Position numbers and translations under genes: made by a program. Below are positions 3,022-33,850 of a stretch of 33,850 nt of DNA, one piece after another. Position 1 is the first letter of the stretch. Each line of letters opens with the position of its first letter. Origin of the DNA: Methanotrichaceae archaeon (lineage in GTDB: Archaea; Halobacteriota; Methanosarcinia; Methanotrichales; Methanotrichaceae); the NCBI GenBank assembly GCA_963803145.1, contig CAWDLW010000009.1:1-33850 (forward strand), read 5' to 3'. The notes under the pieces were generated by a model. That model was not told the DNA's origin. It saw only the letters and a list, made by a program, of their open reading frames with translations, and did no database searches.

Positions 3022-3059
3022 ACCGTCACCCAATCACTTTAGTTTTCTTTAATAGGTTA

Positions 3060-3969: not shown

Positions 3970-4273
3970 CGAGAGAGGAAGGGCGGCCGCCGCTGGCCTT
4001 TTGAGGTCGGTGTGGAAAGTCCCCCCACCTCTGGACGCACAGACATCCCAACGGATGTGGGGCGAGAGCTCCGGCTCTGGCACAGAAACGATACCGCTCG
4101 ACGCTAATGCGATGATGCTGCAAGGCTGAGGTCACGTCGAAAGCGGATGAAACGGCGAAACCCTGTGGGTGCAAGCCAAAATAGAGCAAAATAGTTTGGT
4201 TGTCCAGCCAAGCTCGGGTATGGCGCTAAGCTAAATGCCGCCGAAACAGAAGGGGGCTTACTCTCCTCACTCG
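3970..4273 (+). ncRNA. rnpB: Archaeal RNase P RNA
   Basis: Conserved GGAAAGTCCCCCCAC, ACAGAAACG, TGAAACGGC, GTGCAAG and AACAGAAGGGGGCTTA; termini CGAGAGAGGA and TCCTCACTCG pair (P1). Confidence 0.93.
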
Positions 4274-16700: not shown

Positions 16701-16904
16701 TATAATATTTTTTCCTGCATAGCCTTAGCCTCAGGCTCCATGCCCTCGATGTCTAGCCAAGATAAGGCCCTCTTTACTCAAGTTGTGGGCCTGCTCTTTG
16801 AGTTCCCTAGCCTTTTGCCGCGATGGCGTATCGTGCAGTCCTCTAGGGCTCCGGCATAACAGATAGAGGGAATCGTTATTCTAATCCCTTCAACCGTATG
16901 CATG

Positions 16905-16995
16905 CGCTTTCCAAAACCTTCCCCCAGCGAGGGGTTAGGGGCAGCCCGCGCGGCGATTGAGCGCGCTAGGAAAACCATTAGTTTTAGCCCCGGAA
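16905..16995 (-). repeat. GC-rich interspersed repeat, copy 2 (unoccupied candidate IS110 target at 16980..16989)
   Basis: TTCCCCCAGCGAGGGGTTAGGGGCAGCCCGCGCGGCGATTGAGCGCGCTAGGAAAACCATTAGTTTTAGCC aligns closely with 32271..32336. Confidence 0.85.
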
Positions 16996-17225
16996 GAAGC
17001 ATAGAGCCAATGATTATTTTCATTCGGGCGCACTTCAACACCTACTTGAAAATCATGATGGTTTATGATTGAATTTCATTCGTTAGGTACAATAAAGTCA
17101 AACGGCGGCACCCCGCAGCAAGCTGGTATATTCACTAAAAATGAATCGTTATCAATAAACACTTTCGGCTCACGAAGGACTAGTTTATTAATGCGTATGG
17201 GTATTTACCTTATGCCGGAAGAACC

Positions 17226-30722: not shown

Positions 30723-31220
30723 ATGGGTAGAAAACCTATAATAATTAGGCATATATCAAAGATAGACCTTGATAAATTATATAAAAAAGAGACTGATCTA
30801 AGGATTAAGGAACGGTTATTGGCAATAATACATTTATATGAAGGGAAAAACGTATATGAGGTAGCTGATATTTTAAAAAGGGGCGAGAGGACAATAAAAT
30901 ATTGGTTAAGCAGATGGAATAATCAAGGCTATAATGGATTGACACCAAAGAATAGAAATGGCAAAAAGCCAAAGATGTCTCTTGATGAATGGGATAGAGT
31001 TATTAAAGAAATTGAAGACAAAGGAATGACGATAAAAGACGTATTAAAATATGTAAGGGATACAAGAGGTATAGATTTTTCATATAAATATGGCTGGCGA
31101 ATTTTAAGAGTAGTGAAAAAAGTTAAGTATGGGAAACCATACATCAGAAATGAAAAGAGGCCTGCAGATGCAGAAAGTTTTTTAAAAAAGGATAAAATCA
31201 GTGCTGACCACTGTTACTGA
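30723..31220 (+). CDS. IS630 transposase OrfA (HTH)
   Basis: RIKERLLAI...VADIL...WLSRWNNQGYNGL. Confidence 0.85.
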   Translation: MGRKPIIIRHISKIDLDKLYKKETDLRIKERLLAIIHLYEGKNVYEVADILKRGERTIKYWLSRWNNQGYNGLTPKNRNGKKPKMSLDEWDRVIKEIEDKGMTIKDVLKYVRDTRGIDFSYKYGWRILRVVKKVKYGKPYIRNEKRPADAESFLKKDKISADHCY

Positions 31221-31728
31221 TCCTGTTATAGGATTTCTTGATGAAAGCTCTTTACAACAGCGCCCTAATACACGTAGAGTCTTAAACACTCATTTAATAA
31301 ATTATAAACCTGGAAAGGTTAGATCAAGAACTATTTTTGGATTTATAGCATTAAATGGCAATGATGAGGTTATGGTTTCCAACTCCTCTAAGAAGGAAGC
31401 GTTGATGGCATTTGCTCAAAATATAAGAAATAATAATATTATGAGGCCAATTTGTATACTTTTAGATAATGCTAGAATTCATTTGGCCAAGAAATTTAGA
31501 AAACTAGCTGAGGAAATCGATATTCACTTAATTTATAATATCCCCTATTCACCAGATTTGAATCCTATAGAATTCGGTTGGAAGGATTTCAAAAGAGAGA
31601 TCGCCAAATACACTGATTTCGATGAAGCTATTATAGCTAGCCAAGATTGCGCTTTAGAAATATTTTATTCCAAAAAGGATGGATATTCAAAGTCCTGGGT
31701 GGAGCGATTTCTTAGTGCAAAAAGCTAG
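31186..31728 (+). CDS. IS630 transposase OrfB (DDE), reached by frameshift at the T6A6G run
   Basis: FLDES, LLDNARIH and PYSPDLNPIE motifs; frame is open from 31186. Confidence 0.85.
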   Translation, partial: KRIKSVLTTVTDPVIGFLDESSLQQRPNTRRVLNTHLINYKPGKVRSRTIFGFIALNGNDEVMVSNSSKKEALMAFAQNIRNNNIMRPICILLDNARIHLAKKFRKLAEEIDIHLIYNIPYSPDLNPIEFGWKDFKREIAKYTDFDEAIIASQDCALEIFYSKKDGYSKSWVERFLSAKS

Positions 31729-32256: not shown

Positions 32257-32333
32257 CGTTTTCTGAAATCTTCCCCCAGCGATGGGTTATGGGTAGCCCG
32301 CGCGGAGAATGAGCGCGCTAGGAAAACCGCTAG
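32257..32333 (-). repeat. GC-rich interspersed repeat, copy 4, interrupted by IS110
   Basis: Matches copy 2 up to TAGTTT, then IS sequence begins. Confidence 0.85.
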
Positions 32334-32374
32334 TTTCCCATGAAAAACCTTCATCAATTAAAAGAAATGGGGTG

Positions 32375-33634
32375 CTATCCACCCCCTACCGAATGTCTAT
32401 TCTTCAAGTGATAAAAGGCGTCTACGATAGCAGCCACTCCATCCTTTAATCGGTCATCTTTTGATAGATAGAGGAGGTCCCTTTTGACTGGTTTTGATGC
32501 AGCTGTAGTGCATTTGTTCTCTTGATATAGCTCTTGATTGATCAGCAGATGATAAATTATTGTGATTAATTTCCGTGCTAAAGCAGTGATCGCTACATTG
32601 TAACTCTTTCTGGCCGATAATCTATGGAAGTACCTTGAGAGCTTGTTCTTGTTATTTCTCATCTTAGCTATCACTTGAGCTATCTCGACAAGCATAGTTC
32701 TGAGACTCTTGGACCCCTGTTTCGTAATACCACATTGCTTCTTTTTCCCTGCAGATTCGTGTAGTCCAGGAACCAATCCACACCATTTAGCGATTTGTTC
32801 TGGGGTTTGGAAATCGTGATAGTCACCGATTTCTGCCAAGATGGTCGACCCTGATCTAAAACTTATTCCTGGAATTGACATAACTATTGCCAGATCTTTA
32901 GCGCTTTTCTGAAATTTGCTAAGCACTTCAAGACTTGTTTTATCTATCTTCTTTTTCAGAAGATCAAGGAGCTCTAGATTATCCTTAACAAGCATTCTCG
33001 AAGTATCATCAAGACCGTTTGCAAGAGCCGCTTTGATGACGTCTCGCTTTTTCTTGATCTTCTTTGAAGTGATTCTGTCCAGGATCGAGTCTGCATCCTT
33101 GCCTTCAACCAGGCCGTCCAAGATAATCCTGCCTGATTTACCAAAGATGTCTGAAATACAAGAACTCAGCTTTATGCCGCAAAGTGCTAGATACTTATGA
33201 ACTCTGTTTCTAAGTTGAGTTTGAGTCTTTATATATCCTGATCTGGCACGGGTCATCATTCTGAGGGCTCTATCCTCATTGGAAAAGACTCTTGATCTCT
33301 TGATTTTGCCATCCAAGCAGTTACCTGCAATCCTCTTAGCGTCATGAGAATCCGACTTATCCCCTACAAGTCCTTTGACCATCCATGGATTTGCTACAAT
33401 TGTATCAATAGAGGGACTCAGGCAATCGTATACTGGAAACCAGTAAACACCTGTAGCTTCGAATGCTACTTGCTCGCAATTATTGGCTATGAGCCAATTC
33501 CTGAATCTCTCTAGCTCAGAACGAGTCGTGCCAAACTGTTCCTGGATTTCAGTCCCATCTGCATCTTCGATCGTGGCTACTATGAGATCTTTATGGACAT
33601 CTGCTCCGCAAACTCTATCTCTTCGTTTGCCCAT
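32375..33634 (-). CDS. IS110-family DEDD recombinase/transposase
   Basis: GADVHK, FEATG, KSDSHDA, SIPGI, AEIGD, catalytic-Ser loop HESAG and ALARKL; frame intact. Confidence 0.95.
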   Translation of the reverse strand: MGKRRDRVCGADVHKDLIVATIEDADGTEIQEQFGTTRSELERFRNWLIANNCEQVAFEATGVYWFPVYDCLSPSIDTIVANPWMVKGLVGDKSDSHDAKRIAGNCLDGKIKRSRVFSNEDRALRMMTRARSGYIKTQTQLRNRVHKYLALCGIKLSSCISDIFGKSGRIILDGLVEGKDADSILDRITSKKIKKKRDVIKAALANGLDDTSRMLVKDNLELLDLLKKKIDKTSLEVLSKFQKSAKDLAIVMSIPGISFRSGSTILAEIGDYHDFQTPEQIAKWCGLVPGLHESAGKKKQCGITKQGSKSLRTMLVEIAQVIAKMRNNKNKLSRYFHRLSARKSYNVAITALARKLITIIYHLLINQELYQENKCTTAASKPVKRDLLYLSKDDRLKDGVAAIVDAFYHLKNRHSVGGG

Positions 33635-33639
33635 ATATG

Positions 33640-33826
33640 TCGCTATCCTGATATGGGCAGATGATTAAGATTAAACCCTCATAAGGGGCAATTTCCCATA
33701 CGCGTTCAACGACGCAGCCCCGTATTCGCGGGATTATTGGCCAGTTTTAGCCGCGAGATCATGATCTCAAAATTAAAGCTGCCTTCACTGCCCATATCAG
33801 ACTAAACATAGTTGGCCATGAATGTG
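33640..33826 (-). ncRNA. Putative IS110 bridge/seek RNA
   Basis: 13-bp enclosing stem CTGATATGGGCAG (33648..33660 and 33788..33800), internal hairpins, and segments matching target and donor junctions. Confidence 0.7.
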
Positions 33827-33850
33827 AGGTTTTTCATCCGCCACGTATGA

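Follow-up and report, generated by a model that had tools for sequence, protein, structure and literature searches.

Bridge and seek RNAs are known from work on bacterial elements. In IS621, as described in parts of two reports, the left end encodes the RNA, and each of its loops consists of a stem, a left guide pairing with the bottom strand, a stem loop and a right guide pairing with the top strand; CT serves as the core, and inverted repeats measure 2-3 base pairs (bp) (PMC11208160; Hiraizumi et al., 2024, PMC11208158). Bridge RNAs are predicted for most IS110 entries of ISfinder, according to a portion of the report by Durrant et al., 2024 (PMC11208160). In elements of the IS1111 type the RNA region lies downstream of the gene and the guide order is the reverse of the IS110 type, and rare exceptions with an upstream non-coding region, e.g., ISMtsp17, are mentioned in passages of the same source (Siddiquee et al., 2024; PMC11187229). 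Part of a preprint counts 662 archaeal IS110 recombinases (10.1101/2024.06.21.599552), and thus the protein family is not new in archaea. The present analysis concerns an IS110-family insertion sequence (IS) at the end of a 33,850-nucleotide (nt) stretch of DNA from a Methanotrichaceae archaeon, hereafter the window, which corresponds to C9:1-33850 of the 51-contig assembly GCA_963803145.1. We believe that this element uses RNA-guided recombination, with a probability of roughly 85%; production of the RNA and its binding by the recombinase are carried over from IS621 and IS1111.

The features that define the element and its host are the following.

32334..33850 (-): IS110-family insertion sequence, 1,517 of 1,536 bp, the leftmost 19 nt lying beyond the contig end (nine genome copies, ends compared with empty repeats)
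32375..33634 (-): recombinase gene, 419 amino acids (aa), with a DEDD RuvC-like domain and a Tnp domain carrying the serine motif G--P----S-G
3971..4272 (+): archaeal RNase P RNA, 214.8 bits

The recombinase carries PF01548 (N-terminal DEDD RuvC-like domain, E 1.1e-18) and PF02371 (C-terminal Tnp domain, E 2.4e-23), reaches 252 bits against the NCBIfam model NF033542 'IS110 family RNA-guided transposase' (cutoff 140) and aligns with the solved IS621 transposase 8wt6 (E 1.8e-12). Residues D12, E59, D95, D98 and S294 are invariant among seven homologues; the first four align with acidic residues of IS621, and S294 is the serine of the motif GLVPGLHESAG. Partial hints at the subgroup of the recombinase come from the IS621 match and from its C-terminal 121 aa, which share 37% identity with IS5075/IS4321. 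The nearest relatives of the protein were found in metagenome-assembled genomes (MAGs) of Methanotrichaceae, Methanocella and Methanoregula. Since the window includes an archaeal RNase P RNA and the closest recombinase homologues come from Methanotrichaceae MAGs, the window is archaeal, and the initial annotation was right to call this an archaeal IS110-family element.

Nine copies of the IS are present in the genome. An intact 419-aa open reading frame (ORF) is found in seven, with a DNA identity of 97-100%; the length of 1,536 bp was measured or projected for seven of the nine, and the copies on C15 and C25 are disrupted by other insertions. The ends were set by comparing the eight other genome copies with uninterrupted repeat copies. 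Position 33850, previously taken as the left end with the terminus (C)TCATA and UAUGAG as the donor guide reading it, is the end of the contig, so that both the terminus and its partner fall away. All eight other copies continue for 19 nt past the equivalent point (CGCCCATGA(T/C)CCTTAAGGG) before the flank GGCTAAAA is reached, which gives the left boundary GGCTAAAA/CGCCCATGA in 8/8 (a slash marks the junction). The flank that had been predicted, GTTTTAGCC, does lie beside these eight copies, but 19 nt farther out than expected, and is unreadable for the window copy. The right end reads ...TTTTTCATGGGAAA/ in 9/9 copies. The left non-coding end thus measured comprises 235 nt (216 in the window and 19 beyond), and 41 nt separate the stop codon from the right end. 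A subterminal inverted repeat of 7 bp was identified: its left copy, CCCATGA, is preceded by 2 terminal nt, and its right copy, TCATGGG, is followed by 3; the earlier claim of an upstream RNA together with sub-terminal inverted repeats stands in that both are present, but the repeat is another one than had been named.

32334..32343 (-): IS right end TCATGGGAAA, made up of the subterminal inverted repeat TCATGGG (32343..32337) and the A-run AAA (32336..32334), the putative crossover region
32257..32333 (-): right arm of the interspersed repeat that the element interrupts (right half of the target, CTAGCGGTTTTCCTAGCGCGCTC...)
16971..16990 (-): empty target GGGCTAAAA/CTAATGGTTTT in an uninterrupted repeat copy, with the predicted insertion point between 16982 and 16981

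The element is located between GGCTAAAA and CTAATGG. All eight repeat-borne copies share one position and one orientation, there is no target duplication, and the A-run alone is common to both junctions. The left junction is AAAA/CG in the eight other copies and therefore CT is no shared core; right junctions across elements read AAA followed by C, G, A or T, and the stretch common to both sides is AAA, which points to a crossover in the A-run. The arrangement put forward initially, with a CT core, a left end at 33850 read by UAUGAG (right donor guide) and, in one compact hairpin loop, CCAAUA for the right target, has next to no chance of being correct: it draws on the CT that follows the A-run in most right flanks and on the pairing of CCAAUA with TAATGG at 5/6 positions, yet the further 19 nt of element, the junction A/CG and right flanks beginning with G, A or T in other target classes all speak against it. 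In addition, CCAAUA (33740..33735) forms part of GCCAAUAAUCC, which is constant among homologues with different right flanks, and is therefore not a guide.

Directly upstream of the recombinase gene, the left non-coding end contains a structured region, for which the following parts were delineated.

33646..33803 (-): putative bridge (seek) RNA region, ~160 nt, in which a basal stem closes off one loop for target binding and one for donor binding
33785..33800 (-): basal stem 5' strand (CTGATATGGGCAG + TGA), pairing with 33648..33664; helix 1, 16 pairs, 7 changed on both sides
33648..33664 (-): basal stem 3' strand (TCA-T-CTGCCCATATCAG)
33755..33768 (-): target-loop distal hairpin GAGAUCAUGAUCUC; helix 3, 3/4 pairs changed on both sides
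33685..33721 (-): donor-binding loop, GGGGC (33721..33717) with GCCCC (33689..33685), inner hairpin 33716..33701, guide on the 3' side

The region 33803..33646 folds with a minimum free energy of -60.4 kcal/mol (z -4.39), and 0/200 shuffles fold equally well. The perfect 13-bp stem already recognised in the initial annotation is indeed formed, by CTGATATGGGCAG at 33800..33788 and CTGCCCATATCAG at 33660..33648. For comparative analysis a set of 88 elements was assembled, consisting of seven full homologues from genomes, 80 from metagenomes and one copy from the own genome; both conserved RNA anchors are present in 83 of them, L046, L059, L066, L070 and L084 being without the anchors or without enough upstream DNA, and the partial loci L038-L040 were excluded from every count. 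The structure tested has six helices: one is the 16-bp basal stem, two (closing stem and distal hairpin) belong to the first loop, and three (outer stem, inner stem and hairpin) to the second. Over 69 distinct homologous sequences 94.0% of the cells pair in this structure, as against 30-46% when the partners were slid as a control, and changes on both sides were observed in 12/36 pairs, compared with 2.9 +/- 1.1 in shuffles (0/500 reach 12). Pair 102/134 of helix 5, for example, is A-U in 46 sequences and G-C in 20, and helix 6 is 99% paired. One pair is U-G in 69/69 sequences and G-U pairs are frequent; since such pairs would be impossible on the opposite strand, the RNA strand is that of the recombinase gene. 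The window scan with Rfam returned no family at gathering score for the RNA region, and only chance-level matches to small nucleolar RNAs on the left end (E 2.1 and 9.7).

Three segments of this RNA correspond to DNA at the target or at the end of the element.

33769..33778 (-): right target guide CUUUAAUUUU, target loop 5' side, complementing the top strand of A-run + right flank
33743..33752 (-): left target guide GGCUAAAAC(U), target loop 3' side, equal to the top strand of left flank + A-run
33690..33699 (-): left donor guide AUGGGAAA(UU), donor loop 3' side, equal to the top strand of the IS right end

The core matches are GGCUAAAAC at 33752..33744, CUUUAAUUUU at 33778..33769 and AUGGGAAA at 33699..33692. 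Two of the guides coincide with 10-nt matches that had been pointed out before: GGCTAAAACT (33752..33743) is identical to 16989..16980 in the uninterrupted repeat copy, an empty site within the same window, and ATGGGAAATT (33699..33690) matches CATGGGAAA at the right end (32342..32334). The earlier reading of an upstream RNA with a left target guide and a left donor guide, aimed at an interspersed repeat, is upheld, and both matches covary with the flanks or ends. A compact layout with both target guides in one hairpin loop was not recovered; the target guides lie on opposite sides of an internal loop and flank the small distal hairpin, the top-strand guide coming first. In the donor loop the 5' side is a single U.

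Covariation across homologues, one of the checks that had been proposed, was assessed with unique pairs from the 83 anchor-bearing elements by permuting the partners 2000 times. For the left target guide and the left flank, 56 unique pairs gave 4.48/6 matches versus 2.44 in permutations, with an identity of 0.89, 0.91, 0.98 and 1.00 at the four positions adjoining the A-run. The right target guide scored 2.74 versus 1.64 against the right flank (61 unique pairs), and the left donor guide 4.82 versus 3.86 against the right end (11 unique pairs); in each of the three tests 0/2000 permutations reached the observed value. The match of the right target guide is strong in the classes CCCT-AAA (3.7/5) and ATAT-AAA (4.3/5), and the donor-guide variants GGG, GUG, GCG, GAG, ACU and AUU each agree with their own right end. 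Sequence matches alone are silent on whether these segments act as DNA or as RNA, and in principle the site could be found by protein-DNA contacts alone, the internal target-like and end-like sequences being subterminal DNA binding sites. We consider this very unlikely, given that the segments are single-stranded in a fold whose conservation shows in compensatory changes and strand-specific G-U pairs, that one guide is sense and the other antisense with both overlapping the A-run, as in the pairing scheme of IS621 and IS1111, and that the flanks follow the guides over at least nine target classes in which the protein is 60-95% identical.

The own genome provides further evidence for guide RNA function. 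The target is an interspersed repeat of ~110 nt, with members at 16893..17006 and 32257..32333 in the window and 101 genome-wide, collected with a right-arm anchor. Uninterrupted repeats read GGCTAAAACTAATGG, in longer context ...CTTCTGGGGCTAAAACTAATGGTTTTCCTAGCGCGCTC..., and the target position is polymorphic within the family (GGCTAA(A/C/T)A). The exact GGCTAAAA is carried by 8/8 occupied repeat copies, in comparison with 13/59 empty ones with a recognisable site (Fisher p 3.1e-5), and most empty members carry GGCTAACA or GGCTAATA, which demonstrates a preference for repeats with the exact sequence. The ninth copy, on C25, is inserted in non-repeat DNA. Its left flank is still GGGCTAAAA, and the A-run with the right flank (TAAAG), AAAATAAAG, is the perfect 9-nt complement of its own guide variant CUUUAUUUU. 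Two RNA variants occur in the genome, one in six copies and a second in C34, C8 and C25, and they differ in the right target guide (CUUUAAUUUU versus CUUUAUUUUU) and in the base ahead of the donor guide (U versus C). The second RNA variant fits the right flanks of C8 (9/10) and C25 (9/9) better.

The C25 copy also bears on the notion that the structured region is merely a 5' leader for translation or stability of the recombinase messenger RNA, the flank matches being a by-product of site preference. The basal stem does end 12 nt ahead of the recombinase ATG, but a leader leaves unexplained both the loop nucleotides that track DNA outside the element and the perfect 8-nt and 9-nt guide matches at this non-repeat site; as a sole explanation it seems highly improbable. 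A leader role and a guide role are compatible and not exclusive.

Two other suggestions concerning the repeat were examined and rejected. A REP-like (repetitive extragenic palindromic) or otherwise palindromic nature is not supported, as the repeat folds no better than shuffles (z +0.58); the repeat has no Rfam match either. Moreover, among contigs of four DNA sequencing runs on the C27 copy, X1, X4 and X9 join 1479/1482 to 3027-3032 but with 11-24 other letters between; the joins were read as other repeat-family copies and not as the C27 locus without the IS. A circle junction was not seen either, though contigs of this kind could not reveal one.

Relatives of the element appear to have been aimed at other host sequences. 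In a sister clade, 63-69% identical at the aa level, the guide is (G)AUUGAAAC, which matches the conserved 3' end of the repeats of clustered regularly interspaced short palindromic repeat (CRISPR) arrays. Loci of this clade, from metagenomes and MAGs, include L034, L074, L079, L080, L088, L090, L094, L095, L105 and L109. A 30-mer from the left flank recurs in the locus with a period of ~72-75 nt in 20 of the 41 sister-clade loci that have at least 30 nt of left flank, and Tandem Repeats Finder detected 37-nt repeats with a period of 72-73, which flank the element on either side in L079 and lie on its upstream side in L109. The CRISPR repeats hit belong to at least four families, all ending in ATTGAAAC, and insertion occurs after ATTGAAA, one nt before the 3' end of the repeat. 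If this is true, the sister clade would represent an RNA-guided invasion of the host's CRISPR memory, and its presence in CRISPR arrays suggests that, in methanogens, RNA-guided transposons are in conflict with CRISPR immunity or else use the arrays as a safe harbour. A literature search that covered listings, the starts of abstracts and passages of PMC10883916 brought up no account of IS110 elements being directed to CRISPR repeats by a guide. Sulfolobus ISC1229, of the IS110 family, bears binding sites of the CRISPR-repeat-binding protein Cbp1, according to part of the literature consulted. In another clade (L031-L033, L043, L053, L082 and others), with 73-83% aa identity, the guide is CCCUAAAC and the insertion site CCCCACCCTAAA/GGGATGGGG, apparently another host sequence that recurs in Methanothrix MAGs.

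Taken as a bridge (seek) RNA, the ~160-nt transcript would be encoded by the left non-coding end on the same strand as the recombinase and directly upstream of it, with the 16-bp basal stem closing off the two loops. GGCUAAAAC, on the 3' side of the target loop, would pair with the bottom strand of left flank and A-run, and both target guides would span the A-run. The RNA-bound recombinase, with its DEDD and Ser residues, may then join an excised circle junction ...CATGGG-AAA-CGCCCATG... (also written ...CATGGGAAA/CGCCCATGA... or ...TTTTTCATGGGAAA/CGCCCATGATCC...) to the target ...GGCT-AAAA-CTAATGG..., and strand exchange inside the A-run would account for insertion at one position and in one orientation in the interspersed ~110-nt repeat. 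The synthesis and binding of the RNA, the circular intermediate, the chemistry of strand exchange and the exact position of crossover are modelled here on IS621 and IS1111.

A number of observations weigh against RNA-guided recombination as proposed here. The right target guide pairs with the repeat at 7-8/10 positions (7/10 with AAAACTAGCG in the window copy), the C that follows the A-run being mismatched throughout, and the repeat may therefore be a tolerated near-cognate site. In the CRISPR-targeting clade the match is good at the first right-flank position only, and it is weak (2.2/5) where the right flank is a CRISPR spacer. A right donor guide was not found in mutual-information and complementarity scans: positions 2-5 of the left end, which varies little, do vary (G/A, C/T/A) without a compensating RNA column, and no column is both complementary to and covarying with positions 2-6. 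As a candidate, CAUGGG was considered to read both ends through the inverted repeat, and was rejected because the right-end and guide variants GUG, GCG, GAG, ACU and AUU are not mirrored in the left end. The donor-side covariation comprises few independent variants, i.e., the 11 unique pairs, and since one molecule carries both guide and end, common descent is a partial confounder; similarly, the permutation counts overstate independence because the homologues are mutually related. Finally, no RNA run is listed among the 21 sequencing runs holding the sequence.

The outermost part of the left end and the surroundings of the element contain some additional features.

33828..33839 (-): conserved left-end box GGATGAAAAACC, preceding the RNA basal stem by ~30 nt
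30723..31728 (+): two overlapping ORFs of 165 and 175 aa
15568..15719 (+): two adjacent transfer RNA genes

The left end starts with a hairpin, ATGATCC..GGGTCAT, which is kept by compensatory changes and is followed by the box GGATG(A/G)AAAACC. In the alignment this box is strongly conserved, down to the homologues L036 and L037, which are 38-40% identical. As a guess, GGATGAAAAACC could be a candidate archaeal promoter element and the hairpin a 5' stem-loop; a donor guide role for the hairpin was dismissed, as it would be indistinguishable from a plain 5' stem-loop. At 30723..31728, the second ORF ends in WVERFLSAKS, 10 residues that equal the translated 3' end of the ~1,090-bp insertion in the C15 copy. 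More than 20 near-identical copies of this insertion occur genome-wide, and it is probably another insertion sequence. The C25 copy (C25:147828-150577), the sole one outside the repeat family, is disrupted by a ~1.2-kb insertion near position 855.

Compared with IS621 and the IS110 type, the element shares the DEDD + Ser recombinase, an RNA from a long left non-coding end upstream of the gene, and two loops with a distal stem-loop in each. One guide is directed to the bottom strand left of the core and one to the top strand right of it, both covering the core, the donor guide matches the right end, and the natural target is an interspersed repeat. However, whereas the order in IS621 is stem, left target guide, stem loop and right target guide, in the present element the top-strand guide comes first and the bottom-strand guides lie on the 3' side. 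An A-run takes the place of the CT core, the subterminal inverted repeat measures 7 bp versus 2-3 bp, and the 5' side of the donor loop is one nucleotide, with no right donor guide found in the scans mentioned above. As the host is archaeal, the sigma-70 junction promoter of IS621/IS110 cannot apply.

The IS1111 elements ISEc11, ISKpn4 and ISPa11, as far as passages of PMC11187229 describe them, resemble the present element in that the top-strand complement is 5' of the bottom-strand complement in the RNA. According to the same passages, subterminal inverted repeats are another common trait, with 3 nt past the inverted repeat at the right end, and the target of ISPa11 is likewise a host repeat (REP). 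They differ in that their RNA region is downstream of the gene, whereas here it is upstream and only 41 nt follow the stop codon, and in their inverted repeats, usually of 11-13 bp with 7 nt beyond on the left, versus 7 bp with 2 nt beyond. ISPpu9 of Pseudomonas putida, also of the IS110 family, similarly has several copies in one interspersed repeat family (REP), but its host is bacterial, according to part of PMC12288879. The sister clade recalls the CRISPR-repeat-targeting Tn7-like transposons described in part of PMC11837452, which are mobile elements preferring CRISPR arrays too; those belong to another transposon family, and in the IS110 sister clade the repeat match lies in the guide RNA.

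As judged from its sequence, the element is a hybrid, combining an IS110-like RNA position with an IS1111-like guide order and a short subterminal inverted repeat; since exceptions such as ISMtsp17 exist, this layout may have precedents. The lineage mixes traits that separate IS110 from IS1111 and may thus bear on the movement of RNA genes between element ends, and the hybrid layout on the mechanistic coupling of guide order and RNA position. It would also offer a candidate compact recombinase that requires an A-run and not CT as its core and possibly has a simpler donor loop, in an archaeal lineage that can be decoded from sequence alone and whose natural re-programming is seen over about 80 relatives. 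We would suggest, tentatively and at somewhat less than even odds, that this lineage is an undescribed IS110/IS1111 hybrid with an A-run core and a single-guide donor loop, re-aimed at host repeats that include, in the sister clade, those of CRISPR arrays.

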